In this document: positions 4,060 to 31,900 of the stretch, one piece after another
How positions within the stretch are numbered: the stretch's first letter is position 1
How the letters are laid out: each line of letters begins with the position of its first letter
From: a virus
Taxonomy: Duplodnaviria > Heunggongvirae > Uroviricota > Caudoviricetes
Strand: one strand, 5' to 3'
DNA: 38,621 nt
IMG/VR virus record: IMGVR_UViG_2851955134_000002
The notes under the pieces: model-generated
What the model saw: only the letters and a program-made list of their open reading frames with translations
Told to the model about the DNA's origin: nothing
The model's database searches: none
Program-made: the position numbers and the translations under genes

Positions 4060-4355
4060 GCACCATCAACCACCAGAAGCTACGCGAACTGGCATTTGCC
4101 CTGCAACGAATGGCAACGCCTCAAAAATTACTGGAATTTCGCGCAATGCTCTCGCCGTCTGCTGTGCTGGCACTGCTGGATCAGCTGGAGCACGCCAGAA
4201 CCACGGCTCCTGCCATTCGCCTCACGCTCCATCATGAAATCGCTGATTTCTGCGCAACGCTGGGGGCACCTGGCGAACCGGAAACGCCGGAAGCAATGCA
4301 GCAAGAGCTGCTGCAACGCATCGATAACGTTTTTGATTTTTTTCTGAACCAGTAA
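4056..4355 (+). CDS. Hypothetical protein
   Basis: 99-aa ATG ORF with a GAAGGAAG RBS, start overlapping the upstream stop. Confidence 0.5.
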   Translation: MSTINHQKLRELAFALQRMATPQKLLEFRAMLSPSAVLALLDQLEHARTTAPAIRLTLHHEIADFCATLGAPGEPETPEAMQQELLQRIDNVFDFFLNQ

Positions 4356-4677
4356 GAAACCAGAACATGCACACACAAAAAAACCGCTTGCCATGCCGCA
4401 ATCAGTCAGGTTACATTTCCGCTGCACCTCACAAAACGGGTGCCGGGTTTCGCAGCCTGCTGACTACACAAGCGCACAACCGCGCCAGCGGTTTTTTTGT
4501 GCGTACTGTATTGCCACGTTTTTTTCGCGTCAGAATTATGGCGGGGCGTACGGGGCCGACTTCGGTCGGGCCGGGTTCTTGTGTAGCCGGTACTGCGAAC
4601 CTCGTACGTCTCGCCACCCACAGTTTCGCAGCTCTGGATGGTGAGTTTTCACAACTTACTACACAAGGGGCCACACC

Positions 4678-4908
4678 ATGGCAAACCGCAAACCACACCG
4701 CGCTATCGCGGAGCGTCGTCACATCCAGACTGAAATCAACCGCCGACTTTTCCGCGCATTCCGCGTTGCGCAAATCATGCACATCAACATGCTGCATGAG
4801 CGCAGTCATGCGCTATCAAACACTTATTCCGCCTCTGTTTTCAGCTATCTGGCGGATGATCTACGCGAGCTTCAGCAGCTCATCCAGCAGCAAAACCAAC
4901 TCCGTTAA
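4678..4908 (+). CDS. Hypothetical protein
   Basis: 76-aa ATG ORF with an AAGGGG RBS, after a 320-bp structured non-coding gap. Confidence 0.45.
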   Translation: MANRKPHRAIAERRHIQTEINRRLFRAFRVAQIMHINMLHERSHALSNTYSASVFSYLADDLRELQQLIQQQNQLR

Positions 4909-4980
4909 TTCCTGTTCCGAGCCTTTCCCGCACCCTGCGGCGGGAGGCCTTCGCACATCTGTAGTAAAGAGAATTGCAGC

Positions 4981-5370
4981 ATGATTGACCGTCACGACTT
5001 CGTAAAATGGGTGCGCACACAGGACACCCGTCTGGCCCCAAAACTTCAGGCAATGTTTGATTTTTATCTCCGTGCCCGTGCCAGCCGGGCACGCACCACA
5101 AAACCGGAGAACGCAGACACCCTTTATTTCACCGTGGACGACTGTTACCGCGTGGCCTTTACACCACAAGGTCTGGGCCTGTACACCCTGACACCACACG
5201 GCGACTCCCTGTTGGCGTATTACGACTCCCCGGCCTCCGTATTTGCGGCAATGCTGGCGCATCGTACCGCTGGCGGGTGTGCATCGCTGAGTGAATACAC
5301 CGCTGAATTTAACCGCCTTTCCGTCATCTTTTCGCAGGAGTGGCAGAGCGTGACGGGATACCAGCCATGA
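4981..5370 (+). CDS. Hypothetical protein immediately upstream of gene A
   Basis: 129-aa ATG ORF; no recognisable motif. Confidence 0.45.
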   Translation: MIDRHDFVKWVRTQDTRLAPKLQAMFDFYLRARASRARTTKPENADTLYFTVDDCYRVAFTPQGLGLYTLTPHGDSLLAYYDSPASVFAAMLAHRTAGGCASLSEYTAEFNRLSVIFSQEWQSVTGYQP

Positions 5371-8207
5371 GTGAGTTTGCATGGAGCTGGAATGAACCGC
5401 AGCCAGCTATTGATCCGGACGACTTCGCGAACTTCAGCCGGTTGCCAAAAACCGGACTGCAACGCGCCATTCGTTACTACCTTGAGGCAGACAAAAAGGC
5501 CCAGGAAGAACAGGAAGCGAAGGGAGAAGCCTTTTTCGCACAATCCGCCATGGGTAAAAAACTCATGGCATCCCTTGAGGAAGCCGGGCAACACAAAAAA
5601 CTGATAAAAAACATCATCAGTAAGCGCCAGGAAATAAAGCAAGACCCGGTGGCCCGTGCATTTGTCACACTAAAGGCGCTTCCCGTTTATCTGCGAGAAC
5701 CCCTGAGCCGCCACCTCTCGTTCCTGCGCAAGAAGCAGGAAGCCGATCGTCAGAAAGGCAAAAAGAGCTGGCAGGCCGAACGCTACGCGCGCGGAAACCT
5801 GCGCAAAATATTCGAACGTCTGAAGCGCACCGACAGCCGCTGGCTGACACAGGGGTATCGCTCCCTTGCCGGACGCGAACGCCTGGACGATTTGCTTTAC
5901 CTGCCGCAGCTCAACAAACACCAGATACAGACGCTGGCCACCATGACGGCGGCGATGTTCAGCAGCACCTTCGAAAAACTCTGCGATGGCTTTGGCGCGA
6001 CCGATGGTGAGCTGACCATGGATGTAACGCTGAAGGCGTATCAGATGCTGGCCCGCATGGCGTTACACCTGCACACCATGCCGCCGCATTATGACGCACT
6101 GACAACAGACAAAGACCGGAAGAACGAACCGGACACGGAGCTGCTGCCAGGCGCAATCCTTCGCCTGACCTGTGCGGAATGGTGGAAACGCAAACTGTGG
6201 CTTTTACGTTGCGAGTGGAGAGAAGAACAACTCCGCGCCGCCTGTCTGGTTTCCAGAAAAACATCGCCCTATCTGAGCCAGGACGCATTAAGCGAGTTTC
6301 GCGCACAGCGCGAGAAAACACGCGATTTCCTGAAAAGTTTCATGCTGGAAAACGAAGATGGGTTCACGATTGATCTCGAGACAGTGTATTACGCGGGAGT
6401 AAGTAACCCGGTTCACCGTAAGGCAGAAATGATGGCCACCATGAAGGGGCTGGAACTTCTGGCCGAAGCCCGTGGCGACAAAGCGGTGTTTCTGACTGTC
6501 ACCTGCCCGTCAAAATACCACGCCACAACAGAGAACGGTCATCCGAATCCCAAATGGAACGGGGCCACCATGCGCGACTCCAGCGATTACCTGGTTAACA
6601 CGTTTTTTGCGGCGGTCCGCAAGAAACTGAACCGCGACGGCCTGCGCTGGTATGGCATCCGCACGGTGGAGCCTCACCATGACGGCACCGTGCACTGGCA
6701 TATGATGGTCTTTGCTCATCCGGAAGAAATCGACACCATTGTGTCCCACACCCGCGATATTGCCATTCAGGAAGATCGTCACGAGCTGGGTGATGATATT
6801 ACCCCACGCTTTAAGGCGGAGTACGTCGACGGCTCAAAAGGCACACCGACCAGCTACATCGCCACCTACATCGGGAAAAACCTGGACAGCCGTGCCGTGG
6901 ATGGCATCGACCCGAAAACGGGCAAGCCACGCGTTGACCACGAAACCGGAAAATCAATGGCCGAGAGCGTGGAACGCGCCATCGGCTGGGCGCGCCTTCA
7001 CCGTGTCCGCCAGTTCCAGTTCTTTGGTATCCCCTCCCGTCAGGTGTGGCGTGAACTCCGCCGCCTTGCCAGCCAGATGGCACGCAACCCGGAAGGCCCG
7101 CAACGGCTGAAGGATGACGCAATGGATGCGGTACTCGCTGCCGCTGATGCCGGATGTTTTGCCACCTACATAGAGAAACAGGGCGGCGTACTTGTTCCAC
7201 GCAAAGACTACCTGATTCGCACCGCCTACGACCTCGCAGAAGAGCTGAACGATTACGGCGAACAGAGCGCACAGATTTATGGGATCTGGTCACCACTCAT
7301 CGGGGAATCCTCCCGTGTGTGCACGCACCCGGATAACTGGAAGCTGGTAAGACGTAAACCGGAAGCGGAAGACAACACCCGCGAAAATGGTTTTGACCTT
7401 CAGGGCGGCCCTGCCGCCCCTTGGACTCGTGGCAATAACTGTCCCCGTGTACAGGAAACAGACAACAACGGGACAGAACAACCGGAAGAACGGCCAGCAC
7501 CGTGGCCGCAGATTCCTGACGGCATTGAAGTGAATGAATGGATGCGCTCACTGAAACGGCACGAACGCCGGGCGCTGATGCGTTCGCTGCGTGACAAACA
7601 GGCAAAAAACAGCAGCGATGAAATGCAGAACTGGACGCAGGGCCGCAAACAGCCGCGGCCTTTGCCTGATAACCACGAGTTACTCGCTAAAGAATGGCGG
7701 GAGTCTGCTGAATCTCTCGGCCTGCATATCGGTGAACAGCAGATGCAGCACCTGTTACGGGGCGGCAGTCTGTACGTTGACGGCAGCATCATTGCACCGC
7801 AGGGATTTGAAATTGTACGCAAACCGGATACCCGACCGGACAGCCGAATCACGCAGCTCTGGCAACGCCTGAGCCGTAATCACGGCGTAAGCAGCACGGA
7901 GATCCGCCATAACCCGGTCGCCAGCTATCTGGAACAGCTGGGGGCATCAGACCCTGAAGCCGCCGCACGCCTGGCATCCACACTTCAGCAGGACCAGAAC
8001 ACCATGAAAACACCCGTTACCGTGCTTTCTGACATGCTGCGCGCCATCCGCGACGCAGAGCACGCACAGAGAATCAGTGAAACCACTGAACGCGCCCGCC
8101 GCAAAGCAGACCTGCTGCGGGGTGGCCTGACCAGTGGAAACAAAAAACAGACAGAAACGGGATTCACAAATCCCGTAAATGAGCAAAAAACGCGCCGCGA
8201 TATATGA
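5367..8207 (+). CDS. A: Replication initiation endonuclease (P2 gpA family, rolling-circle HUH type)
   Basis: Large ORF with an HUH-like motif (EPHHDGTVHWHMMVF) and paired tyrosines (SYIATYIGKN) as in P2 A; the track starts on GTG at 5340, and 5349 (GTG) or 5367 (ATG) are both possible starts. Confidence 0.85.
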   Translation: MSEFAWSWNEPQPAIDPDDFANFSRLPKTGLQRAIRYYLEADKKAQEEQEAKGEAFFAQSAMGKKLMASLEEAGQHKKLIKNIISKRQEIKQDPVARAFVTLKALPVYLREPLSRHLSFLRKKQEADRQKGKKSWQAERYARGNLRKIFERLKRTDSRWLTQGYRSLAGRERLDDLLYLPQLNKHQIQTLATMTAAMFSSTFEKLCDGFGATDGELTMDVTLKAYQMLARMALHLHTMPPHYDALTTDKDRKNEPDTELLPGAILRLTCAEWWKRKLWLLRCEWREEQLRAACLVSRKTSPYLSQDALSEFRAQREKTRDFLKSFMLENEDGFTIDLETVYYAGVSNPVHRKAEMMATMKGLELLAEARGDKAVFLTVTCPSKYHATTENGHPNPKWNGATMRDSSDYLVNTFFAAVRKKLNRDGLRWYGIRTVEPHHDGTVHWHMMVFAHPEEIDTIVSHTRDIAIQEDRHELGDDITPRFKAEYVDGSKGTPTSYIATYIGKNLDSRAVDGIDPKTGKPRVDHETGKSMAESVERAIGWARLHRVRQFQFFGIPSRQVWRELRRLASQMARNPEGPQRLKDDAMDAVLAAADAGCFATYIEKQGGVLVPRKDYLIRTAYDLAEELNDYGEQSAQIYGIWSPLIGESSRVCTHPDNWKLVRRKPEAEDNTRENGFDLQGGPAAPWTRGNNCPRVQETDNNGTEQPEERPAPWPQIPDGIEVNEWMRSLKRHERRALMRSLRDKQAKNSSDEMQNWTQGRKQPRPLPDNHELLAKEWRESAESLGLHIGEQQMQHLLRGGSLYVDGSIIAPQGFEIVRKPDTRPDSRITQLWQRLSRNHGVSSTEIRHNPVASYLEQLGASDPEAAARLASTLQQDQNTMKTPVTVLSDMLRAIRDAEHAQRISETTERARRKADLLRGGLTSGNKKQTETGFTNPVNEQKTRRDI

Positions 8208-8283: not shown

Positions 8284-9243
8284 ATGAAAATTTGTATCGA
8301 CGACGGCTCCACCAACATCAAGCTGGCATGGACTGAGAACGGCGAACGCCGCAACGCCATCAGCCCGAACAGCTTCAAGTCGGAATGGTCTGCGCCGTTC
8401 GGTGGCACGCAGCCCGCGAACTACATGCTTGATGGCGTGCGCTATGGTTTTGATCCGGTCAGCGATCGCTTTGTCCAGACGACCGACACGCAATACCAAT
8501 ACAGCGATGTGAATGTCATTGCCATTCATCACGCGCTGGTCAAATCAGGCATCACGCCACAGGAGGTGGATGTGGTTGTCACCCTGCCACTGAGCGAGTA
8601 TTTCGACACAAACGCACAGCCGGACATGGCCAACATCAACCGCAAAAAAGCGAACGTTATGCGCCCGGTGGAGTACCAGAACGGCGAAGCATTCACTATC
8701 CGTAACGTGCGGGTTATGCCTGAATCCATTCCGGCTGGCTTTAAGGCACTGGCTGACATGAGTCCATTTGAATCTCTGCTGATTGTGGATTTAGGCGGAA
8801 CCACGCTGGATGTGGCAAAGGTTCAGGGGCAACTGGCAGGCATCAGCCAGGTATTTTGCGATCCACACGTAGGCGTTTCACTGATGACCGATGCCGTACT
8901 GTCGGTGATGGCCACTAACGGTATGCGTACCAGTCACCACATCGCCAATACCATTATCGAACATCGCCATGATGAAGCCTGGCTGCGCCAGCACATCCAC
9001 AATGTCGCGCATTACGACAGCCTGATGGCGGTTATTCGTGAAAAGGAAGAAACTCTGAAACAACGCGTGATCCGCGCGCTGGCGGGGTTTTCGGGGTACG
9101 GTCGGGTGATGGTTGTCGGTGGAGGGGCGGAGATTGTGGCTCCGGCGGTACATGACGCTTACGGCCTCAACGCAAACATTCACACAACACCGGAGCCACA
9201 GTTTGCCCTGGTTAATGGACTCCATGACATGGACAGGGAGTGA
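8284..9243 (+). CDS. parM: ParM/StbA-like actin-family partition ATPase
   Basis: N-terminus MKICIDDGSTNIKLAW...ISPNSFK...YQYSDVNVIAIHHAL...VMPESIPAGF...IVDLGGTTLD...MVVGGGAE closely tracks plasmid R1 ParM as I recall it, at similar length (319 aa). Confidence 0.85.
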   Translation: MKICIDDGSTNIKLAWTENGERRNAISPNSFKSEWSAPFGGTQPANYMLDGVRYGFDPVSDRFVQTTDTQYQYSDVNVIAIHHALVKSGITPQEVDVVVTLPLSEYFDTNAQPDMANINRKKANVMRPVEYQNGEAFTIRNVRVMPESIPAGFKALADMSPFESLLIVDLGGTTLDVAKVQGQLAGISQVFCDPHVGVSLMTDAVLSVMATNGMRTSHHIANTIIEHRHDEAWLRQHIHNVAHYDSLMAVIREKEETLKQRVIRALAGFSGYGRVMVVGGGAEIVAPAVHDAYGLNANIHTTPEPQFALVNGLHDMDRE

Positions 9244-9247
9244 ACCA

Positions 9248-9559
9248 ATGACAACATCAACCAGGCGGATAAGTTTCTATCTGAAGCCTGCAGCCGTCAA
9301 GAACGAAAGCGAAGCATGCGCCTGGCTGGACAGCCTTACACCAGAAGCCCGCAAAAGCGGCCAGCGTGTGGCTTTTCTGGCCGGGCTGGCACTTCTGAAA
9401 ATGAATCCAGCAGAGGCTTACCGACTGGCTGCATGGGCTGACGATGAGGCGTTATCAGTGACACAAACCAGGACAGAACGCCCCGAGTCACAGCCAGTAC
9501 CAACCGCACAGATAACCAGTCAGATGGCCGGAAATATCCGGGCGTTATTTCCTGAATAA
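9248..9559 (+). CDS. parR: ParR-like partition adaptor
   Basis: 103-aa ORF 4 nt after parM with a GGGAG RBS; N-terminus (RRISFYLKP...ACAWLDSL...RVAFLAGLAL) resembles the ParR DNA-binding region as I recall it; start taken at the internal ATG 9248 rather than the track's 9113. Confidence 0.6.
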   Translation: MTTSTRRISFYLKPAAVKNESEACAWLDSLTPEARKSGQRVAFLAGLALLKMNPAEAYRLAAWADDEALSVTQTRTERPESQPVPTAQITSQMAGNIRALFPE

Positions 9560-9937
9560 CATCAGGGCGTATTCGCCCTGCCACCAATCCCATAACATAA
9601 AGAACGGGGTGCAAATCACTATGCACCCCGTTCCAATACAAACCATCAGAAGATCTACACATCTTTCTCAAATGGCCAAGTAATCGAGCTGGTTCAGGAA
9701 TAAGCATGCTGCCAACACAAGTGAAGGAGATAAAACTGTAGAACTGATCAATCGTTGGAAACAAGTATTGACAATATGTTCGAGTAACCCAACTGGATAG
9801 ATTTTATGCTGATTATCCATACAGTAAAAAAGTGAGGATACTCTTTGAATAACGCCAGCAAGAGTGGTAACATTAGGCACTGATTTTCATCAATGCAGTT
9901 ACCAGCTTACACAAGCTTATGTTTTATTGGGGGTTTT

Positions 9938-11020
9938 ATGGTAAACGTGAGGGAGGATGAACTTTTCAAACTCATCGAGCAAGGCATCAAAGGCAACGCA
10001 AATGCATTTACACTCCTATGCAGAAAGATGATTAACAACATCCGTAAAAATGATGAGGCTTTAGCTTCTAAGCTGGCTTCGTTAATTGCTGAGGGAACAG
10101 TATTACGTGGGGCATCTAGTAAGGCTCCTATGCCTGTGGATGGAGACTCCAGACGAAACCTTTTGCAGGAAACATCTGTCAACGCAATTGTTGAAGAACC
10201 TGTATGGAATACGGATATCTCAAAGAAGCTGGAGTCAATTGTTAACGAAAGAGAGAATGCTGTTTCTTTGTTCAAAGCTGGTCTTGAACCTGTGAAGACG
10301 GTTTTACTTTCTGGCCCGCCAGGCGTAGGCAAAACAATGTCCGCACATTGGCTTGCTGCAAAGTTAAATTTACCTCTTTTAACATTGGATCTCTCATCTG
10401 TAATGAGTTCTCTTTTGGGAAAAACAGGTAATAATATTAAATCCGTTATGGATTATGCCAAAGAGAAACCATGTGTCCTTTTGCTTGATGAATTTGATGC
10501 TGTTGCAAAAAGACGTGATGATGACAGGGACGTTGGAGAATTAAAACGTTTAGTTACTGTACTCCTACAGACCATAGATGAGTGGCCAGCGACCTCGCTT
10601 CTTGTTGCTGCGACTAATCACCCTGATATCTTAGATCCGGCTGTTTGGCGTCGATTTGAGCACATCCTTAAATTTAATATGCCATCAGTAGAACTGATAG
10701 ATAGATATTTAGTCAATCATAATATTGAACCTGAACTATCTAAAAAACTTGCACCATTATTAGATGGCATGTCCTTTGCCATCATTAACCGTATTTTGAA
10801 TTTCTCCAAAAAGAATGAGGTACTTAGAAATATTCCATTTGAAAGCTCATTAATAGAAGCCGTAATTACGGAGAGGGTTTCATTGGATGAATTTAGCGAT
10901 AATGATCTCAATATAATTAAATATCATTTTGACGGTTTTTCAAATAGGAAGATAGCTGAATTAGTTGGTGTTTCACATCCAACAATCGCGAATAAATTAC
11001 AAAAGTGGGGGATTAAATGA
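9938..11020 (+). CDS. AAA+ ATPase with C-terminal helix-turn-helix; first gene of candidate defence pair
   Basis: Walker A (LLSGPPGVGKT), Walker B (VLLLDEFD), sensor-1 (LLVAATN), arginine-finger region (AVWRRFE) and a C-terminal HTH (SNRKIAELVGVSHPTIANKL); AT-rich; start at ATG 9938 (GGGGG upstream) preferred over the track's 9893. Confidence 0.8.
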   Translation: MVNVREDELFKLIEQGIKGNANAFTLLCRKMINNIRKNDEALASKLASLIAEGTVLRGASSKAPMPVDGDSRRNLLQETSVNAIVEEPVWNTDISKKLESIVNERENAVSLFKAGLEPVKTVLLSGPPGVGKTMSAHWLAAKLNLPLLTLDLSSVMSSLLGKTGNNIKSVMDYAKEKPCVLLLDEFDAVAKRRDDDRDVGELKRLVTVLLQTIDEWPATSLLVAATNHPDILDPAVWRRFEHILKFNMPSVELIDRYLVNHNIEPELSKKLAPLLDGMSFAIINRILNFSKKNEVLRNIPFESSLIEAVITERVSLDEFSDNDLNIIKYHFDGFSNRKIAELVGVSHPTIANKLQKWGIK

Positions 11021-13221
11021 TGGAAAGGAACTTACTTTTAGGTAACGGTCATGTTCTGACAAAAAAGGAACCTTTGCCTAAAGGAAGGGATGGTAAGCGC
11101 TATCCCTATACTCTTGAAGAAGTAAGGGAGCATTTAAACCCAGAGATTGATACTTTACTCTCACGCTTTCGCAGTTTGGATGATGCGGCTAAGCCAAGGG
11201 GGGAGAGTGTATTCAATTTAACTTTACACCCAGCGTTTTTGGGTAAAAGCTACTTTCCGGAAGGATTACTTAGAGCGACAGGTTTACGGGATGTCGGTAG
11301 CCGTCAGGTAATCATTCGCCCACGGAAAGCGGCACGTCAGTGCGATCAGAATAAGGACTTAGTAACGGCGCAACTGTTTGTTAGCGGTGATGATGATGCC
11401 GTTATAAGATTTAAGGAAATTTTAAATTCCCCTACAGCTCCGAAGGGCGTACAAAAGGATTTGATCGAAATTGAAAGTGTTAGCTTTTTTGAAGGAAAAG
11501 AGAGAGCACGCAATTTTGAGCATGCGAAAAGTGATTTGATAAAATTTGAAGTGGTTCTTCATGCTGGGGTTGAAGACGATGATATCGTTAAAGCCTATAT
11601 TAGCTATGCGGCACAATATGGTGTCTCTGTTGATTACAAAAGTAGAATCCAAGTTGGTGGACTGACTTTCATCGTTGCACACGCGCGACCTGAAGATATG
11701 AAAAAAACACTCGATTTTTCATTAATCCGCGTTGTGCGGCCGATGCCGTCTCTCAGGTGTACTCAGCCGAACATTGTCAGAAAGTTATCTAATATAGTTA
11801 CACCGGAGCTCCCTAATTCTAAAGCTGTTCTTGAATCCGAACGTATTGCCATTTTTGATGGTGGCTTGGGGACAGCTGACTTGAGTAATTGGGTTACGGA
11901 ATACGTGTATCCAGACACCAAAGAAACAAGCGGATTATTATTGCAGCACGGTAATGAAGTAACATCCACTTTCTTATTCGGACGTGTCGAGGAAAATGCA
12001 CCTTCTTTTAAAAGACCGTTTATGAATGTAGATCATTATAGAGTTCTTTCACCGACATCAGGTGACAATGGCAATTGGGATTTATTTGATGTCCTTAAGA
12101 AAATACAGTCCGTTCTTGATAGTGGTGACTATAAGTTCGCTAATCTAAGTATTGGTCCTCATCTTCCAATTGGTGATGATGAGGTTCATGTATGGACTGC
12201 TGTTTTAGACCAAATCTGTGCTAAGCATGGGATATTACTTACTGTTGCTGTTGGGAATGATGGCAATGAGGACGGTGATGCAGCGAGAATACAACCTCCT
12301 TCCGATATGGTAAACGCGCTAGCGATTGGTGCTGCTGATCGTAGCGGTGAAAAATGGGGGCGGGCACCATATAGCTGTATTGGCCCAGGCAGAAGCCCCG
12401 GATTCGTTAAACCTGATGGTGTTATTTTTGGTGGAAGCGACGACGAGCCTTTTTACACTTACAACCCTCTGCTTGGTTCTATAGTTGGAGTTCAAGGAAC
12501 CAGTTATGCCTCTCCATTAGCATTGAGAACGGCCGCTGGAGTTGCGGCTCTATCAGGAACTCCATTGAACACCATTGCATTGAAAGCGTTGCTTGTTCAT
12601 CATGCTGAAACATCAAGAAAATATTCGCGTGAACATATCGGTTGGGGACGGTTTAGTGAGGATCCTAACGTTTTAATCGATTGTCCAAATGATACTGCTA
12701 CAGTAATTTACTATGGTTCATTAGCAAAAAATAAATATTTAAGGGCACCGATCCCATTCCCTGATGTTCCATTTGACGAAGCATTTGAGCTTACCGCTAC
12801 TTTATGCATTCAAACCCCAGTAGATCCTGAACATTCAGTAAACTATACAAGGGCCGGTATGCAGGTAACTTTCCGCCCAAGATTCGGCCTTGACGATACC
12901 GATACAGATGATTTCTTTGGTCAAAAAAGCCAGTATAAGACTGAAAGGGAGTGTAGGAGTGAAGGTCATAAGTGGGAAACTTGTTTGCACAGAAGCAAAA
13001 AGTTCAGTACTGATACATTATTAAGCGATCCAGTTTTTGATATACGGTATCATGCCCGAGATTCTTCGCGCCATGTTAAGGGAGTTTCAGCCCCTGATAT
13101 GCAATATGCGATGGTAATAAGCGTAAGGGTAAAAGACTTTGATTTATATAATGTTATTCGCCAGCGATATACAATTCTGAATCCTATTCAACTGCGCACA
13201 CAAATTTCTCTCGACACGTAA
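11017..13221 (+). CDS. S8 subtilisin-like serine protease with about 270-aa N-terminal domain of unknown function; second gene of candidate defence pair
   Basis: Subtilase motifs in the canonical D-H-S order (IAIFDGGLG, LQHGNEVTS, oxyanion-hole VAVGNDG, GTSYASP); start overlaps the ATPase stop (ATGA), implying coupled translation. Confidence 0.8.
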   Translation: MMERNLLLGNGHVLTKKEPLPKGRDGKRYPYTLEEVREHLNPEIDTLLSRFRSLDDAAKPRGESVFNLTLHPAFLGKSYFPEGLLRATGLRDVGSRQVIIRPRKAARQCDQNKDLVTAQLFVSGDDDAVIRFKEILNSPTAPKGVQKDLIEIESVSFFEGKERARNFEHAKSDLIKFEVVLHAGVEDDDIVKAYISYAAQYGVSVDYKSRIQVGGLTFIVAHARPEDMKKTLDFSLIRVVRPMPSLRCTQPNIVRKLSNIVTPELPNSKAVLESERIAIFDGGLGTADLSNWVTEYVYPDTKETSGLLLQHGNEVTSTFLFGRVEENAPSFKRPFMNVDHYRVLSPTSGDNGNWDLFDVLKKIQSVLDSGDYKFANLSIGPHLPIGDDEVHVWTAVLDQICAKHGILLTVAVGNDGNEDGDAARIQPPSDMVNALAIGAADRSGEKWGRAPYSCIGPGRSPGFVKPDGVIFGGSDDEPFYTYNPLLGSIVGVQGTSYASPLALRTAAGVAALSGTPLNTIALKALLVHHAETSRKYSREHIGWGRFSEDPNVLIDCPNDTATVIYYGSLAKNKYLRAPIPFPDVPFDEAFELTATLCIQTPVDPEHSVNYTRAGMQVTFRPRFGLDDTDTDDFFGQKSQYKTERECRSEGHKWETCLHRSKKFSTDTLLSDPVFDIRYHARDSSRHVKGVSAPDMQYAMVISVRVKDFDLYNVIRQRYTILNPIQLRTQISLDT

Positions 13222-13228
13222 TTTTTAT

Positions 13229-13250
13229 GGCCGCGAAAGCGGCCTTTTTT
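13229..13250 (+). terminator. Rho-independent terminator after the ATPase/protease operon
   Basis: GGCCGC-GAAA-GCGGCC hairpin followed by TTTTTT, 8 nt after the protease stop. Confidence 0.6.
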
Positions 13251-13673
13251 CTGTAATTTCTTTATGAATTTACATGCACGATAGTGCACAAATTTGCACA
13301 ATTATTTTGAACGACTTTTTGCCCTTCCGGCCCGCGTGGCGGCTGGATCCGTGAAGGATCCGTGCGTGCACAAAAAAACGCGTTTTTGTTGCGCGCCGGT
13401 GCCGGGGGAACAGCCCGCAATTTGGGGCCTGAAAGCATCCCCAGAAATCGCCAGAAATGCGGCTGATTGCGCCCCTGACGCGATGTTTTATTGGTTGTGT
13501 GTGAAGTATGGGCTGATGCATCACACGCCCTGTGATGCGCTTTGGTGCGGCGTGTGCTGACAGGTTATTCAACCTGTAGATCCCTGAGATGCCTGGTGCG
13601 TGACACACCGGAGCTGGTGAGTCGGGGCATAAATTTTTTATGCCCCGGCGAAGCAGCAGACAAGCGGAGCGCG

Positions 13674-14723
13674 TCAGGATGTGGGCGGGGTATCCAGCAG
13701 AGCGTAAGGGTTAAAGCGGATCACCTCCTCGCCCAGCCAGTCATTAACGTGCTTCATCGCCTCCATCACCGGCATCAGTTCATTGATCGCAAACACTCTG
13801 GCCGCCTTCTCCACATCACCAAAAGAACCCTGCCCGCTGGGCATTGCGCCCATCAGTTGCGGTGGTACACGGTGAGCGGCCAGCACATCATCACGTGAGG
13901 CGGTCTTGACGTTCATAAACTCATCCCGGGCGGTGATCTGCTGAAACGGCAGGATCTGCACGCCGTCCTTTCCGCCGTTCGGTGCCTGGAGCAGCAGGTT
14001 TTTGAATGCCCCGCCGCCTCTTGCGCCCTGTAATGCGTTTTCGAGTGCCTGCATGCTTTCGCGGTCAACCTGTGCAGCCCCCACGTAAATGATGCAGCCT
14101 GCGTGTGAACCGTTGTCATAGTAGAGTTTGCGGAAGCGGTCCGCCGAGTGAGACAGACTGGCAGACAGCAGGCCGCCGAGGTATTCCGGCATCCCGTAAA
14201 CTTCCTGGTTGATGTCGGGATTCATGACGTGACAGACGCGCCCCTGACGGAACTCGTGATCCTGCTCCCCCGCCTGCACAAACCAGTACACATCAGGTTC
14301 CACACCTCGGCGGGTGTACTTCGCCAGCGCGTGCCGCAGTTCCAGCTTTCCGCCCAGCCTGTTGGTGCGCAGTTCAAGAAACGCATTCCCGAACACAAAC
14401 CAGTCCAGCGCAAAGGCGGAGAACGCCTGCCGGGACAACAGCCGGTGCGGAATGAAGCAGCCCAGAAGGGCATTCCGCTTGAAGTACAGCGCCGACTGGT
14501 GCCACGAGGTCTGCCGGGATGCCCGCGCCAGTCCGTACCAGTCAACGGGCGTTTCGTAGTATCTGCCGTTACTCAGACAGTATGCGTTATCCAGCAGGTC
14601 GAGTGCGTGCGCATCGTAAGGGCCGTCGAACGAGAAGGCGCTTAACGACGGCTGGCGGCGCAGTGCCTCTGCCAGCGCCACGCCGTCATCGCGGCGCGAA
14701 TATTTTCGTTTTTGTTTTTTCAT
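13674..14723 (-). CDS. Q: Portal protein (P2 gpQ-like)
   Basis: 349 aa, ATG start; length and position (next to the terminase gene, facing the cos region) match P2 Q. Confidence 0.85.
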   Translation of the reverse strand: MKKQKRKYSRRDDGVALAEALRRQPSLSAFSFDGPYDAHALDLLDNAYCLSNGRYYETPVDWYGLARASRQTSWHQSALYFKRNALLGCFIPHRLLSRQAFSAFALDWFVFGNAFLELRTNRLGGKLELRHALAKYTRRGVEPDVYWFVQAGEQDHEFRQGRVCHVMNPDINQEVYGMPEYLGGLLSASLSHSADRFRKLYYDNGSHAGCIIYVGAAQVDRESMQALENALQGARGGGAFKNLLLQAPNGGKDGVQILPFQQITARDEFMNVKTASRDDVLAAHRVPPQLMGAMPSGQGSFGDVEKAARVFAINELMPVMEAMKHVNDWLGEEVIRFNPYALLDTPPTS

Positions 14724-25296: not shown

Positions 25297-27080
25297 CTGT
25301 AAAATATTTTTCTGTTCTGACTGACAAAGGCGCAGCCCGTCTGGCAAGGGCGGTTGCCAGCGGCTCGAAAATATCCATCACCACCATGAAACTGGGGGAT
25401 GGCGGCGGCAGTCTGCCGGAACCGGCTGCTTCCATGGAAAACCTGGTGAACACGGTATACAGTGCCCCACTGAATCAACTGAGCGTCAGCGCGTCCGATG
25501 CCAGCCAGCTTGTCGCCGAGATGATTATCCCGGAGGATAAAGGGGGGTTCTGGATCCGCGAGATTGGGCTTTTTGACAGCGACGGCGTGATGATTGCCGT
25601 GGCGAACTGCCCCGAAACCTACAAGCCCGTACTCGCCGAGGGAAGCGGGCGCACGCAGACAATTCGCATGATTGTTGTGGTTTCCAGTGCTTCATCCGTC
25701 GAGCTGAAAGTTGATCCCTCTGTCGTGCTCGCCACCCGCGCCTATGTTGAAGAATATGTTGCACAGGAAAAGGACTCTGTACCGCCGCTGCCTGATGTAT
25801 GGATACCGTTTAACGATTCACTGGATATGCTTACGGGGTTCGCTCCGGGCTATAAAAAAATCACCATTGGTGATGATGTGGTTCAGGTTGCCAGTGATAA
25901 ACAGGTTAGTTTCACGCGCGCATCAACGGCAACCTATATCAATAAATCTGGTGAACTGAAAACGGCGGAAATTAATGAGCCGCGATTTGAGCGCGAAGGT
26001 CTGCTGATTGAGGGGCAAAGAACAAACTACATGCTGAATTCGGAAACTCCGGCCAGCTGGGGCAAGTCAGTAAGTATGGATGTGCCCGAAACCGGGACAG
26101 ATAGTTTTGGGTTTACTTATGGGAAGTTTGTCTGCAAGGATTCCATCATAGGGCAAACCTCGGCCATTAATATGGCATCAGTTGCTGCAACAGACGCGGT
26201 TGATGTTTCAGGCGATAATAAGTACGTGACAACCTCGTGCCGTTTCAAAACAGAACGACAGGTAAGATTGCGCATCAGGTTTGACAGGTATGATGGTAGT
26301 ACAACAGATTTTCTTGGCGATGTGTACATTGATGCGCAATCGCTTGAAGTAAATATGACAGGCGGTGCTTCTGGCAGAATTACGGCACGAGTCAGAAAGG
26401 ATAAGATGACAGGCTGGATTTTTGCTGAGGCAACAATTGAGGCAATTGATGGTGAGTTAAAAGTAGGCTCTCAGATACAGTACTCCCCCAGGCAGGGTGA
26501 GGGAACGGTATCTGGCGACTATATTTATCTGTCCACCCCACAAGTCGAAAACGGACCGTGTGCGTCATCATTTATTATTTCAGGGGCCAGCGCAACGACA
26601 AGAGCCAGTGATTTGGTTAGTATTCCCACTAAAAATAACCTGTATTCGCTTCCATTTAGTTTTTTAGTTGAAGTCCATAAAGAATGGGATGTTGCGCCAA
26701 ATGCAGCCCCTCGCGTGTGGGATATAGCGGCAGCCAATACCGGGCAATCAGCAATCGCAGCAATCAACGGAAGTGGCGGTAAGTTATATATGAGTCTGTC
26801 AGACCCCTCAGGAACATATGTTAATAGTGCGGCGGCAGATGTATTTGCACAAAATGCCACGTTTGGATGTATTGCAAAATCTGATGGTAAGTTTCATGTA
26901 GTGACGAATGGTGAAGCGGTTAGTGAAGTTTATTGTGAATATAATGGTGTGACCGCTGATAAGAATATCCGATTTGGAGGGCAGACAAATACTGGAGAAC
27001 GACATCTGTTTGGTCACATTCGTAATTTCCGTATATGGCACAAAGAATTAAATGACAGGCAATTAAGAGAGACCGTATGA
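25293..27080 (+). CDS. H: Tail fibre protein (P2 gpH-like) with divergent AT-rich C-terminal domain
   Basis: Conserved-looking N-terminus (MTVKYFSVLTDKGAARLARA...ITTMKLGDGGG) typical of P2-family fibres; composition turns visibly AT-rich from about 25800 onward. Confidence 0.8.
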   Translation: MTVKYFSVLTDKGAARLARAVASGSKISITTMKLGDGGGSLPEPAASMENLVNTVYSAPLNQLSVSASDASQLVAEMIIPEDKGGFWIREIGLFDSDGVMIAVANCPETYKPVLAEGSGRTQTIRMIVVVSSASSVELKVDPSVVLATRAYVEEYVAQEKDSVPPLPDVWIPFNDSLDMLTGFAPGYKKITIGDDVVQVASDKQVSFTRASTATYINKSGELKTAEINEPRFEREGLLIEGQRTNYMLNSETPASWGKSVSMDVPETGTDSFGFTYGKFVCKDSIIGQTSAINMASVAATDAVDVSGDNKYVTTSCRFKTERQVRLRIRFDRYDGSTTDFLGDVYIDAQSLEVNMTGGASGRITARVRKDKMTGWIFAEATIEAIDGELKVGSQIQYSPRQGEGTVSGDYIYLSTPQVENGPCASSFIISGASATTRASDLVSIPTKNNLYSLPFSFLVEVHKEWDVAPNAAPRVWDIAAANTGQSAIAAINGSGGKLYMSLSDPSGTYVNSAAADVFAQNATFGCIAKSDGKFHVVTNGEAVSEVYCEYNGVTADKNIRFGGQTNTGERHLFGHIRNFRIWHKELNDRQLRETV

Positions 27081-27355
27081 AAGATTTGACTTTGAAGTTT
27101 CATGACAAACAGCAGTTTAAAGCCCTCCTGTCATCTCTTTGCTGGGAGGAAAATGAAGACCTCCAGAACAAACTGTTAGTTGATGAAATTGGTTTCACCT
27201 ATACAGAAACAGGGGAAAATGAAGAGGGAGAACCTGTATGTATCCGGAATGACGGTTATTTTGTCAACGTTCGTATCCTTGATGACTCGTTTGATGTTTC
27301 TGTGTTCTCTGATTATGTGGTGGAGCTGGAAACACCGCTTCGGGAATGGAGCTGA
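27077..27355 (+). CDS. Small acidic protein after the tail fibre gene; possibly a fibre assembly chaperone
   Basis: 92 aa, ATGA overlap with H; AT-rich; no resemblance to P2 G as I recall it, so the function is a guess from position. Confidence 0.3.
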   Translation: MKDLTLKFHDKQQFKALLSSLCWEENEDLQNKLLVDEIGFTYTETGENEEGEPVCIRNDGYFVNVRILDDSFDVSVFSDYVVELETPLREWS

Positions 27356-27367
27356 AGGGAGAAAATA

Positions 27368-27661
27368 ATGGATATAAGCCCCTTGCTTCATGCACTTTGT
27401 GCTGTGGCTGCGCAGCTTCTGGCTGGGCTTTTCACCGGAAACTGGGCTTATGGTGCGGTAGCTGGCTGTACGTTCTTCATTGCACGTGAACACACCCAGG
27501 CAGAATATCGCTGGATTGAAAAATTCGGGAAAGGGAAACGAATTAACATGCCATGGTGGGGTGGTTTTGATCCGCGCGTGTGGGATGCCGGAAGCCTGAT
27601 GGATTTTGCTGTACCGGTGGCAACATGCCTGTTCTTCTGGCTGTCGGTTAGTTACTGGTGA
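27368..27661 (+). CDS. Small membrane protein (two hydrophobic segments), candidate moron
   Basis: 97 aa with an AGGGAG RBS; hydrophobic N- and C-terminal segments around a WWGGFDP motif; followed by a 13-bp-stem hairpin at 27666-27702. Confidence 0.4.
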   Translation: MDISPLLHALCAVAAQLLAGLFTGNWAYGAVAGCTFFIAREHTQAEYRWIEKFGKGKRINMPWWGGFDPRVWDAGSLMDFAVPVATCLFFWLSVSYW

Positions 27662-27734
27662 AATCACGCCACCACCTCGTTATCTGTATGAGGTGGTGGC
27701 GTCAGGTTAAGGGAATGCGTTCAACGACGACGAT

Positions 27735-27839
27735 TTGTCTTTAAGCGTATTCAGTGATTCCCCACACAGATGCAGGCTGAAGTTTCTCCCACATATCCTC
27801 ATCACACCATTGAAAGCCTGCAGGAAACTCAATTCTTTC
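27735..27839 (-). pseudogene. Decayed 3' fragment of a gpU-like tail gene
   Basis: About 105 bp aligning by eye at roughly 80% identity with the 3' end of the intact U gene (28518-28620), same orientation; the reading frame is broken. Confidence 0.6.
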
Positions 27840-28160
27840 AGGCAAGCTTCAGAAAATTATAAATTTCAACAGATACAATTAAAATGATTTACAACGAAAT
27901 CCCCTGCTGCCGGAGGCAAAAGAGGGGATCAGCATCTGGCAATCTGAGTTGTTGCCTGGCACTATCAGTGATGAATACAGATGAAGCCTGGCTGCGTGGA
28001 TTGAATACATTAAAGAACTTCAGCAGGTGACTTTCACTTCCGTGAAGGACAAAGATTATTACAATGCGCTGGTATGGCCTGAATCGCCATCAAAGGGGGT
28101 TTTACAGAAGGCATAATATATTTATAATCCCGCAGCGTTATACACATGCAAACATTCTTT

Positions 28161-28186
28161 GCCCGCCCCGTGCGGGCTTTTTTTTT
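28161..28186 (+). terminator. Rho-independent terminator in the AT-rich intergenic block
   Basis: GCCCGC-CCCGT-GCGGGC hairpin followed by nine T. Confidence 0.55.
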
Positions 28187-28349
28187 ACCACAAAGATACA
28201 GTAACAGACAAAATTGTAATCAGAGCAACAAAATCGCAGGAAACATTTTCATCGATGACGATAATAATTAAAAATATTGTTTCAATAACGCCAACCCAAT
28301 ATAATCCCTTCCGGAACATAGAACTTTAAATCTTCACACAATGCATGTT

Positions 28350-28372
28350 GCCCTCTTTATGAGGGCTTTTTT
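28350..28372 (+). terminator. Rho-independent terminator in the AT-rich intergenic block
   Basis: GCCCTC-TTTAT-GAGGGC hairpin followed by TTTTTT. Confidence 0.5.
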
Positions 28373-28495
28373 ATTTCCCGAATATCACCATTGCCTTCAT
28401 CGGGCGATTTATATATAGTGAGAATGTATTGACAACATTTGCTTTTCTTCCATAACGGGTATAAGGGAGTGTTTTTTACACTCCCTTCTTTTTAT

Positions 28496-28967: not shown

Positions 28968-31900
28968 TTAGTCCCTGTCACGGAAGCTGTTCATGCCTGT
29001 ACGCGCCTGTCTGCGCATCTCTTCGCGGACAGCCTCACCAACCAGTGTTGCCAGTTCACGCGGATTCTGTGTGTTGACGTTGTGCAGATGCACATGTATC
29101 TCACCGGAAAATGCCGCAGCCTGCGTTTGTGGCGCGGTTTCTTTTTTGACGGACTCCGGTCGCAGCGGTGGACGGATAACCTCCGCAACAGGAACAGATA
29201 AAGCCACATCTCCACCCGGGCCGTTTACAGCCTCACGCACGCGCTGAATACCGGCAACCAGCTCTGCATTTGCCTCGTTGTGCTGCGGCTGTGACAGCGT
29301 GGACACCTGACGGGCCACGCTCACCACTGGCGCAGGCACATTCACTGCCGGCATCAGAACGTTAACCACGGGGGAAGGCAAAGCACCCTCTCCACCCGGA
29401 CTGTTCACCGCCTCATGCACACGCTGAATACCGGCAACCAGTTCTGCATTTGCCTCGTTGTGCTGCGGCTGTGACAGCGTGGACACCTGACGGGCCACGC
29501 TCACCACTGGCGCAGGCACATTCACTGCCGGCATCAGAACGTTAACCACGGGGGAAGGCAAAGCCCCCTCTCCACCCGAACTGTTCACCGCCTCATGCAC
29601 ACGCTGAATACCGGCAACCAGTTCTGTATTTTCCTCGTTGTGCTGCGGCTGTGACAGCGTGGACACCTGACGGGCCACGCTCACCACTGGCGCAGGCACA
29701 TTCACTGCCGGCATCAGAACGTTAACCACGGGGGAAGGCAAAGCACCCTCTCCACCCGGACTGTTCACCGCCTCATGCACACGCTGAATACCGGCAACCA
29801 GCTCTGCATTTGCCTCGTTGTGCTGCGGCTGTGACAGCGTGGACACCTGACGGGCCACGCTCACCACTGGCGCAGGCACATTCACTGCCGGCATCAGAAC
29901 GTTAACCACGGGGGAAGGCAAAGCCCCCTCTCCACCCGAACTGTTCACCGCCTCATGCACACGCTGAATACCGGCAACCAGTTCTGTATTTTCCTCGTTG
30001 TGCTGCGGCTGTGACAGCGTGGACACCTGACGGGCCACGCTCACCACTGGCGCAGGCACATTCACTGCCGGCATCAGAACGTTAACCACGGGGGAAGGCA
30101 AAGCACCCTCTCCACCCGGACTGTTCACCGCCTCATGCACACGCTGAATACCGGCAACCAGTTCTGCATTTGCCTCGTTGTGCTGCGGCTGTGACAGCGT
30201 GGACACCTGACGGGCCACACTCACCACTGGCGCAGGAATATTCACGGCCGGAACGGGTGAAACAGTCTGTCTTCCGGTGAGTTTCTGCCAGAGCGTTGTC
30301 AGCGCATCCGCCACTCCTCCGCCCGCCGATACCGCCTGCACTGTCCGGATAACCTGCGGCGCTTTCCACTCGCCGTGAATGATTTCGGGCGCTGGCAGAT
30401 TTTTGAAAACAATATCGCCGGGGCCAGTACGTTTTTTGGTTTCCTCAAGAAGCCCGCCTGTATTGCTGGCGGTTTTCTGTATCCCCTGCCGGAACCATGC
30501 CTCATCCAGCGGGGATTTGCTGCCGGGTTTGCCGACCGGATTGTCCGCCGTTCCCCTCACCTCTCCGGGAACAGCAGGGGCAGGTTTATTGTCACCGTTG
30601 TTTTCCGCTGCATCTGATGACCACGACCATGTTTTCTGCACCATTTTTTTCTGTGCAGGATCCCACTCCCACACAACCGGCGCTTTTTGTGTGGCCTGTT
30701 TTGCGGCACTCTCCTGGAGTTTTTGTGTCTCCTTCTGTGCCTCTTTGATGCCGTCCGGGATGACACCCAGCCACTTCAGCACGGTACCGAGACCATCAAG
30801 GAGCAGCGTCAGCGGCCCCAGCACAATGTTCTGAATGACCCACCCCAGCGTTTTGCCGAACGACTCCCCGGCACTGGTGCATTTGTCGAGCGTCTCTTTT
30901 GAGGCGTTCGCAGGTTCAAGCAGGCGGGTGAACCACTCCCACACAGCTTTAATGCCGTCGCCAATCAGCCCGAACACCGGAGCCAGCGATGCAAAGGCTT
31001 CCCGCAGCGGTTGCAGCGCCTCCCACACTCCGGCAAAAAAGCCGGAAAAAAACGCGCTGATCTGATCCCAGCATCTCCACACCAGAACCGCGCCGCCCAC
31101 CAGGGCGGCAACAATCAGCCCGACCGGGCTGAACAGCGCCCCCAGTGCGCCCCCCAGTACCGACACCGCCCCTGTGACCAGTCCCCACAGGGAAGACAAT
31201 CCCGTCAGGCGCAGCGCCAGCGCGGACACAAGCCGGACAGCCCCACCAATGCCACCGCCCCCCGTCAGCAGCCCCAGCCCCAGTTGCAGTTTTGCCAGTG
31301 GCCCCGCAATCAGCCCGAGCGTCAGTGACAGCGCACCGAATGTGGAAGACAGCGCCAGAACACTCCCGCCCGCCAGTACCAGCACCCTGACCAGCGCCTG
31401 ATGCTCACCGACCCATTCGCGCATCCGGCTCACCCACGCGCTCACCGTCTGAACCAGACCGCGCAAATCCTCCGTCACTGTACCGAAGATGTCCGTGCGT
31501 AGCCCTGAGAACGCGCCACTCAGCGCCTGAACATCGCCGGAAAGATTACCGCGCAGCGTCTGCCCCATGCGGTCTGCCACGCCGCTGACATCACCCAGGT
31601 TGTCACGGACATCGGCCAGCGCCTTTAAGAACTGCGGGATCTGGTCAACGGAGAGGTCTTCAACGGGTGTGCCGAACAGCGCAATGGCCGTGTTCGCCCG
31701 CTCTGCCGGGTCACGGATGGCCAGCAGTGCACGGGCGGTCACCTGCATCGCCTGACGTGCGTTGCTGCCCCCCTGTGCAATGGCAGCAGACACCCGTTCG
31801 GCATTCAGGCCGAGTGTCTCATACGCTGAGACACTGGATTTCGACATATCCGAACCCCGGATGCTGAACTCCTTCACGGCATCGCCGGTTTTATCCAGCG

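Follow-up and report, generated by a model that had tools for sequence, protein, structure and literature searches.

The window analysed here (the whole stretch of 38,621 nucleotides, virus record IMGVR_UViG_2851955134_000002 of the Caudoviricetes) contains two adjacent genes at positions 9938 to 13221 that encode an AAA+ ATPase and an S8 subtilase-like peptidase. Judged from its sequence, this is an intact and genuine ATPase and protease pair of the IetAS family, belonging to a divergent subfamily in which the ATPase, IetA, ends in a helix-turn-helix (HTH). Our favoured interpretation, to which we give a probability of about 80%, is that the pair represents an HTH-bearing IetAS subfamily, that it forms a self-contained moron in the cargo hotspot of a Xuanwuvirus-type P2-like Escherichia coli prophage, and that it works by a protease-toxin/ATPase-restraint model i.e. 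the ATPase would hold a toxic protease, IetS, in check. The gene anatomy, the intact catalytic motifs, the purifying selection, the family, the hotspot location and the horizontal mobility reported below were computed here. Two further copies of the cassette, one in Enterobacter phage phiT5282H (a Novemvirus) and one in a lambda-like prophage of Plesiomonas, serve for comparison. The features of the cassette are:

9677..13266, no strand: mobile cargo cassette of ~3.6 kb, made up of promoter region, ietA, ietS and terminator (delimited by GC content and a three-phage alignment)
9845..9873, + strand: candidate promoter, with -35 TTGAAT (9845-9850), a 17-nt spacer and extended -10 TGgTAACAT (9865-9873), inferred from conservation
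9930..9934, + strand: Shine-Dalgarno-like GGGGG, 3 nt before the ietA start (kept in phiT5282H; GGGG in Plesiomonas)
9938..11020, + strand: ietA, 360-amino-acid classic-clade AAA+ ATPase with N-terminal helical region, AAA core, lid and C-terminal HTH (PADLOC, Pfam)
10313..10336, + strand: Walker A, GPPGVGKT, residues 126-133 with lysine K132 (aligned to the Walker A of p97)
10478..10498, + strand: Walker B, LLLDEFD, residues 181-187 (p97 alignment)
10940..11014, + strand: C-terminal HTH of IetA, residues ~335-359, IAELVGVSHPTIANKLQKWG
11017..11020, + strand: ATGA, in which the stop of ietA overlaps the start of ietS (sequence reading)
11017..13221, + strand: ietS, 734-amino-acid S8 subtilase-like serine peptidase with three regions (PADLOC, PHROG)
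11017..11832, + strand: IetS N-terminal domain, residues 1-272, conserved within the subfamily
11839..12651, + strand: IetS S8 catalytic domain, residues ~275-545 (Pfam Peptidase_S8)
11857-11859, 11947-11949, 12256-12258 and 12502-12504, + strand: IetS catalytic codons D281, H311, oxyanion N414 and S496
12652..13218, + strand: IetS C-terminal domain of ~190 amino acids, residues 546-734, conserved and common to the tested IetS type
13229..13254, + strand: intrinsic terminator, a GGCCGC-GAAA-GCGGCC hairpin followed by TTTTTTCTGT, kept in phiT5282H

The ATPase IetA

An earlier note on this DNA had read the first gene as an AAA+ ATPase with a C-terminal HTH, and both parts of this reading were recovered by profile searches. 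Pfam detected the AAA domain (PF00004 and relatives) with an expect value (E) of 1e-30, and the PADLOC IetA model PDLC02196 aligned residues 22-371 with positions 5-370 of its 374 (E 2.9e-89, 298 bits); three further PADLOC IetA models also matched. The best NCBIfam match was IteA (NF042959), and the closest relatives of solved structure were p97/Cdc48/PAN and FtsH. Alignment to p97 placed the two Walker motifs as listed above, the sensor-1 motif AATN at residues 224-227 and the arginine-finger motif WRRF at residues 237-240, which give the predicted protein the full ATPase motif set of Walker A/B, sensor-1 and arginine fingers. At the extreme C-terminus Pfam found HTH_50 (26.6 bits, with a gathering score of 27) and NCBIfam found a TyrR-type HTH (E 4e-6). 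Homologues of IetA bear either HTH_23 or HTH_50, and the HTH region falls within the PADLOC IetA profile match.

The ietA open reading frame (ORF) on the + strand ends at 11020 and begins either at 9893, the start given in RefSeq, or 15 codons downstream at 9938, encoding 375 or 360 amino acids respectively. The codon at 9893 is not conserved: phiT5282H has ACA where the window has ATG, followed by an in-frame TAG. Because homologues are ~360 amino acids long, GGGGG precedes 9938 and phiT5282H lacks the ATG at 9893, we adopt the start at 9938, as the earlier note had done, and the RefSeq start is probably wrong.

Three other identities for IetA were considered and rejected. Its classic-clade AAA+ core is shared with TRIP13/Pch2 of CBASS (anti-phage signalling systems based on cyclic oligonucleotides), with the PAN-proteasome and with FtsH, and weaker matches to the PADLOC TRIP13 model (E 5e-13) and to the NCBIfam PAN/FtsH/Cdc48 families were obtained; the window has neither a HORMA partner (compare TRIP13), nor an M41 peptidase domain (compare FtsH), nor a proteasome (compare PAN). 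TRIP13 was set aside on the weaker PADLOC match and the missing HORMA partner, and FtsH on the length of 360 amino acids with no M41/protease domain. The orthologue in phiT5282H (4269-5351 of the compared stretch) is labelled 'ftsH: ATP-dependent zinc metalloprotease' in GenBank, which is a misannotation. A sigma-54 activator was also rejected, as the AAA domain is of the PF00004 type and nearest to Cdc48/PAN/FtsH; the Sigma54_activat-type AAA+ domain (PF00158) was not returned for IetA in the Pfam search.

The protease IetS

The PADLOC IetS model PDLC02197 aligned residues 22-707 of the second protein with positions 24-718 of its 749 (E 5.1e-41), and five further PADLOC IetS models matched. 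IteS (NF042956) was the best NCBIfam match, phrog_3964 matched at full length, and Pfam placed Peptidase_S8 at residues 288-544 (E 4e-17). The complete subtilase triad that had been read from the sequence is present, in the motifs IAIFDGG (277-283), QHGNEVTS (310-317) and GTSYASP (494-500), together with an oxyanion-hole motif VAVGNDG (410-416). D281, H311 and S496, as well as N414, were invariant in two non-overlapping homologue sets (n=38 and n=40; 41-86% identity), and the H, N and S align to those of the cyanobactin protease and subtilisin BPN'.

The earlier note had assigned the C-terminal two thirds of the protein to the subtilase. An S8 domain is indeed there, but it occupies the middle third (~275-545) and is followed by a separate conserved domain (546-734) with 30 invariant columns, the profile of which had no PDB relative at E up to 10. 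In agreement with the same note, which recognised no motif in the first ~270 residues, a profile of residues 1-272 retrieved no PDB sequence at E up to 10 and no consistent Pfam family, the Pfam search returning just single-member chance matches. This N-terminal domain has 25 invariant columns across 20 homologues, and by alignment it is the most divergent part of IetS. A single-sequence AlphaFold2 model of IetS was unusable (mean predicted local distance difference test score 32, predicted template modelling score 0.26).

A morphogenetic or housekeeping protease was considered and rejected: the PHROGs phrog_3757 and phrog_3964 are both of 'unknown function', no other Pfam or NCBIfam family was found, and the cassette genes lie outside the structural operons of the prophage. 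Membership of a known morphogenesis or housekeeping family, the outcome that the earlier note had set against its own proposal, was thus not seen for either protein in Pfam, NCBIfam or PHROGs.

Family assignment and comparison with known IetAS systems

The window has the layout of IetAS, in which an AAA+ ATPase gene is followed by an adjacent, co-oriented S8 peptidase gene. The resemblance to IetAS proposed in the earlier note was borne out by the profile searches, as the two proteins matched the PADLOC models of IetA and IetS over almost their whole length and had IteA and IteS as their best NCBIfam families. Homologues of ietA and ietS recur on equal-sized contigs in at least 12 cases, and the pairing is therefore conserved. 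A ~360-residue, HTH-bearing IetA with a ~732-residue IetS is the norm across hundreds of proteobacterial homologues; the subfamily is spread through the Proteobacteria, Pseudomonas, Burkholderia, Serratia, Chromobacterium and Plesiomonas among them, and 27 plasmid records hold full-length homologues, some of these plasmids being from Agrobacterium, Rhizobium and Xanthomonas. Comparison with phiT5282H indicated purifying selection on both genes, with ratios of non-synonymous to synonymous substitution (dN/dS) of 0.145 for ietA and 0.068 for ietS. At least three types of IetAS occur in E. coli.

The system from strain ECOR52 has been tested in E. coli by Wu et al. (bioRxiv 10.1101/2022.08.21.504612). 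We asked whether it is the window cassette and rejected this, as its cloning primers have no match in the window, nor in the island of strain E24377A described below. Scanning metagenome contigs with the same primers yielded an ECOR52-type pair of 384 and 754 amino acids (PDLC02196, E 9e-143; PDLC02197, E 8e-301), and these loci carry the NCBI-equivalog type. Like the window pair, it is a two-gene operon with the ATPase gene first, and its best PADLOC models are the same. In its IetA an N-terminal region is followed by a classic AAA+ core, then a lid, and the C-terminus aligns with the window HTH; this IetA is 30% identical to the window IetA over the full length, HTH region included. The two IetS proteins are 27% identical (E 9e-19), in both the S8 domain lies between an N-terminal region and a C-terminal domain, and their C-terminal domains are homologous (hhalign probability 93%, E 2.7e-7). 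The differences are that the ECOR52-type pair passes the NCBI cut-offs (scoring 526.6 and 1043.4 bits) whereas the window pair does not, and that a Pfam HTH signal is obtained for the window IetA but not for the ECOR52-type IetA. A protein search with the N-terminal 260 amino acids of the tested-type IetS returned just three fragments. These comparisons bear out just in part the idea that the HTH and an extra N-terminal domain on the protease could mark a variant: the divergent subfamily stands, but the HTH belongs to the PADLOC profile and to the tested ECOR52 layout, and the N-terminal region is not 'extra', because 240-290 residues precede the S8 domain in every IetS examined and both ECOR52-type proteins have the same three-part layout.

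In the founding system, on the Agrobacterium plasmid pTiC58, an AAA ATPase and an S8 peptidase are likewise next to each other. Its IetA shares 32% identity with the window IetA (E 2e-45), is 328 amino acids long and stops short of the HTH region, at position 322 of the 374 in the profile. Its 836-residue IetS and the window IetS both match PDLC02197 (3.8e-12 and 5.1e-41), which is the sole link between the two proteases. The pTiC58 system is plasmid-borne, whereas that of the window is in a phage.

A third type, ietHAS (the E24377A type; Liu-DS4 in PMC13069673), consists of an SNF2 helicase, IetA and IetS beside a type III restriction-modification system. It shares the IetA/IetS core with the window: the E24377A IetA is 31% identical to the window IetA, and identity between the S8 domains is 22%, their active-site motifs being aligned. 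In contrast to the window pair, which has no SNF2 helicase gene beside it, ietHAS requires this third gene (PMC13069673); its IetA (326 amino acids) lacks the HTH, the match ending at profile position ~322; its IetS (795 amino acids) has PDLC02198 rather than PDLC02197 as best PADLOC model; and it lies in a chromosomal island rather than a phage hotspot. In E24377A this island (NC_009801.1, 3330029-3340792) holds the SNF2 helicase, IetA, IetS, a DNA methyltransferase and a DEAD/DEAH helicase, the last two forming the type III restriction-modification system, and its layout therefore explains the co-localisation of ietAS with type III restriction-modification reported by Wu et al. (bioRxiv 10.1101/2022.08.21.504612). 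The same authors suggested that ietAS and Zorya II may come to exclude each other when one of the two resides in an integrated element, e.g. a prophage.

Boundaries and composition of the cassette

Both junctions of the cassette were sharp in three-way alignments. On the left, homology to the Xuanwuvirus Shae_phiSM, which has the same flanks and other cargo, stops at ~9676, and homology to phiT5282H, which has another backbone and the same cargo, starts at ~9677. On the right, the window, Shae_phiSM and phiT5282H all realign from TGCACGATAGTGCACAAATTTGCAC, at ~13267. The GC content is 0.41 for 9677-13343 compared with 0.55 for the rest of the window and 0.55-0.60 for the DNA flanking the cassette, and at third codon positions it is 0.32-0.33 in the cassette genes compared with 0.63-0.71 in gpA and the portal gene. 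The pair is therefore AT-rich, as first noticed, but the description of the prophage as GC-rich holds only relative to the cassette.

The reported overlap of the two genes was read directly in the junction, AAATGATGG, where the TGA stop of ietA overlaps the ATG of ietS at 11017-11020; this ATGA overlap couples the translation of ietA and ietS. The cassette also has its own terminator, as had been proposed. It starts eight bases past the ietS stop and consists of the GC-rich hairpin GGCCGCGAAAGCGGCC followed by TTTTTT. At the other end, 160 bp 5' of ietA move with the cassette and keep the TTGAAT -35 and a TGgTAA(C/G)AT extended -10; the block GGATACTCTTTGaATA...GAGTGGTAAnAT is kept in three cassettes from three separate phage backbones. 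The candidate promoter scores 8/12, which is under the threshold of the consensus scanner, and the consensus scan found no + strand site upstream of ietA. A candidate operator (a palindrome/direct repeat at 9901-9922) was rejected, and is not claimed, because neither its position nor its sequence is kept across the three cassettes.

Location in the gpA-gpQ hotspot, and mobility

The window region is 100% identical to the chromosome of E. coli AR_0085 and ~99% identical to that of enteropathogenic E. coli (EPEC) E2348/69. According to the RefSeq annotation the prophage is P2-like and is integrated beside pdxB, with an integrase. Its genes run in the order integrase, repressor/Cox, replication endonuclease, ParM, partition protein and ietA/ietS, then portal and terminase on the opposite strand, then capsid, lysis and tail; among phages that share its flanks, the nearest relatives are members of Xuanwuvirus. 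The neighbours of the cassette are:

5340-8207: gpA replication endonuclease
8284..9559, + strand: ParM (StbA) and a partition/stability protein, the left neighbours in the gpA-gpQ interval (context; RefSeq)
13267..13673, no strand: conserved cos-proximal DNA, non-coding, that separates the cargo from the portal gene, outside the cassette
13674-14723, - strand: portal gene (gpQ)

The cos-proximal DNA is common to the window, Shae_phiSM and phiT5282H and includes GGTG(C/A)CGGGGGAACAGCC at ~13399-13417. The cassette thus lies between gpA and gpQ beside cos, which is the location that defines the hotspot, and the earlier placement of the pair in a cos-proximal slot between the replication/partition genes and the portal gene was confirmed both by comparing flanks and by a published hotspot table. 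The gpA-gpQ interval of P2-like phages was analysed by Rousset et al. 2022 (PMC9122126) and is a documented defence hotspot. Their Table S5B has the window's cargo at rank 7 by abundance, with 400 loci and the comment 'ietAS (Gao et al, 2020)'. Over the parts that are printed (~400 residues in the case of IetS) the proteins in that table match those of the window, with one substitution noted in each. The presence of this cassette in the gpA-gpQ slot was therefore already catalogued as ietAS in 2022 and is not new. The old and tin genes of P2 and other gpA-gpQ cargo share with the window cassette the slot, the moron-like organisation, the cos adjacency and the high turnover; old encodes an ATPase/TOPRIM nuclease and tin a separate protein, both unrelated to IetA and IetS, and the niche alone is shared.

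Among 5,426 complete E. coli genomes the flanks were found in 690 records and the cassette in 32, always single-copy and chromosomal; 31 of the 32 copies were at least 99% identical. In Citrobacter phage Shae_phiSM the ParM/partition and portal flanks are the same, around another cargo gene. Conversely, in Enterobacter phage phiT5282H, which has no ParM, a copy of the cassette with 96% nucleotide identity lies between gpA and the portal gene, and the Plesiomonas plasmid NZ_CP027853.1 (216406-219824) carries a pair that is 84% identical in amino-acid sequence within a lambda-like prophage. Judging by these alignments, the cassette is a swappable, horizontally mobile cargo, and the upstream region and the terminator are conserved across three phage backbones. 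The Plesiomonas pair lies between an endolysin gene and a DUF2514 (Rz-like) gene, upstream of terminase, which is another moron slot, also near packaging genes.

Proposed mechanism

The founding IetAS is a toxin-antitoxin pair that stabilises pTiC58, with IetS as the toxin and IetA as the antitoxin (Yamamoto et al. 2009, as cited in PMC13069673). Toxin/antitoxin behaviour is known just for pTiC58 and ietHAS; in relatives the active site of the protease is required for defence and an ietA mutant could not be constructed, and how ietAS acts against phages is still called unknown in the field (PMC13069673). IetAS of Bacillus cereus behaves as a system of abortive infection, with toxicity setting in on co-expression of a phage protein, and phages are listed as escaping ietAS, among other systems, through mutations in core replication proteins (Stokar-Avihail et al., bioRxiv 10.1101/2022.08.27.505566). 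By analogy with these relatives, we infer that the toxin/antitoxin behaviour, the anti-phage activity, the need for the active site, the abortive infection and the phage-protein trigger may all transfer to the subfamily in the window; our proposals for what the HTH does and how IetS is restrained are likewise predictions.

In the proposed mechanism, synthesis of the two proteins would be coupled, so that IetA would be made in coupled stoichiometry with IetS. IetS would be a latent toxic subtilase-like protease, which the Cdc48/PAN/FtsH-like IetA would keep harmless in an ATP-dependent manner. The HTH of IetA probably binds DNA, the likeliest target being its own promoter, which would result in autoregulation. 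Binding to the own promoter is common among antitoxins. During infection a phage product would disturb the control exerted by IetA and free the IetS protease, as may be expected from the relatives; the freed IetS would then cut essential proteins, and growth of the lysogen would halt before the competing phage finishes its cycle i.e. abortive infection. A sensing or regulatory role is plausible for the N-terminal domain of IetS.

Several results weigh against this interpretation. Experiments on the HTH-bearing subfamily of the window were not found in the accessible literature. The scores of the window pair (252.8 bits for IetA and 114.9 bits for IetS) are far under the NCBI equivalog cut-offs of 510 and 900, and the pair therefore belongs to the family without being an equivalog of the type that was tested. 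The N-terminus of the window IetS is co-linear with that of the ECOR52-type IetS, but the match is not significant (hhalign probability 2.9%) and homology is not demonstrable; nor is there pairwise BLAST similarity between the IetS proteins of the window and pTiC58 (E 0.33). At the pore-loop-1 position IetA has L-L-G instead of aromatic-hydrophobic-Gly, and a threading/unfolding mode is therefore uncertain. Upstream of ietA there is neither a consensus-grade promoter nor a convincing conserved operator.

Alternative explanations

A rather unlikely alternative is that the P2-borne, HTH-bearing subfamily is not a functional copy of the tested IetAS, the N-terminal domain of IetS responding to another trigger, the HTH coupling the system to DNA, and the pair having an additional addiction role for prophages that also live as ParM-bearing plasmids. 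If this were so, the other trigger could, for example, be part of a competing phage, either P2-like or lambdoid.

It is also possible, though we consider it unlikely, that IetAS is here mainly an addiction module, i.e. that it stabilises a ParM-bearing prophage/plasmid by post-segregational killing and does not serve in defence. The founding system does stabilise a plasmid, as cited in PMC13069673, and the 27 plasmid records with full-length homologues fit the same picture. In the window the cassette lies directly downstream of ParM and the partition/stability gene, which suggests a prophage family able to persist as a plasmid; partition modules, found in about a quarter of P2-like phages, may let such prophages live as plasmids (Rousset et al. 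2022, PMC9122126). Against this, the prophage is integrated beside pdxB and has an integrase, the slot is a documented defence hotspot, and relatives of IetAS protect against phages. Because the same cassette also occurs without ParM, in phiT5282H, and in other phage types, as in the lysis/terminase region of the Plesiomonas lambda-like prophage, addiction is unlikely as the sole role. It is plausible as a second role, as defence and addiction are not mutually exclusive.

The combination of an AAA+ domain with a C-terminal HTH is the layout of enhancer-binding proteins. IetA could accordingly be mainly a DNA-binding regulator or remodeller whose targets are DNA-protein complexes of the phage or the host, IetS being an accessory protease for processing, and both the Fis/TyrR-type C-terminal HTH, kept as HTH_23 or HTH_50 across the subfamily, and the listed phage escape from ietAS via core replication protein mutations (bioRxiv 10.1101/2022.08.27.505566) would be consistent with such a role. 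This explanation is very improbable: it is not supported because the AAA domain of IetA is not of the sigma-54 type (it is PF00004, nearest to Cdc48/PAN/FtsH, with no PF00158 match), the pTiC58 and E24377A-type IetA proteins work without an HTH region, and in relatives defence depends on the active site of the protease (PMC13069673). Finally, an inert or decaying passenger, a reading that only the missing experimental literature on this subfamily favours, has next to no probability, given two intact ORFs with every catalytic residue invariant, dN/dS values of 0.07-0.15, an upstream region and terminator kept in three phage backbones and the 400 loci in Rousset et al. (PMC9122126).

Significance

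As a discovery the cassette adds little, since the family, the hotspot and the exact cassette in the hotspot have all been published. The RefSeq and PHROGs labels are generic ('AAA family ATPase', 'S8 family peptidase', 'unknown function') and can now be corrected, including the start at 9938. The remaining interest lies in the divergent subfamily itself and in the N-terminal domain of IetS. With its clear HTH and uncharacterised N-terminal domain, this abundant, compact, phage-borne subfamily, which is present in the well-studied EPEC E2348/69, is a convenient model for the trigger, the substrates and the AAA+ restraint.

Other observations in the window

Rfam searches identified an isrK Hfq-binding RNA at 4424-4498 (64 bits) and a C4 antisense RNA at 4534-4621 (83 bits), both on the + strand and directly 5' of the ORF at 4678-4908, which is a 'derepression protein' in RefSeq. 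The region 4424-4908 looks like a P1/P7-style c4-antirepressor immunity module in a P2-like prophage.

The tape-measure gene (28968-33011, - strand) contains a 180-bp unit repeated 5.8 times at 29209-30251 with 96% identity, which encodes near-identical units of 60 amino acids (…PAVNVPAPVVSVARQVSTLSQPQHNE…) in a protein of 1347 amino acids. Changes in the copy number of this repeat are expected to change the length of the tail.

Between two small genes of PHROG 'unknown function' (27077-27661) and the opposite-strand tail genes lies a region of 830 bp (27668-28495) that has no ORF of 60 or more amino acids, the lowest GC content of the window (0.37) and several hairpin-plus-T-run motifs; this region might represent either a second variable locus or cargo that has decayed.

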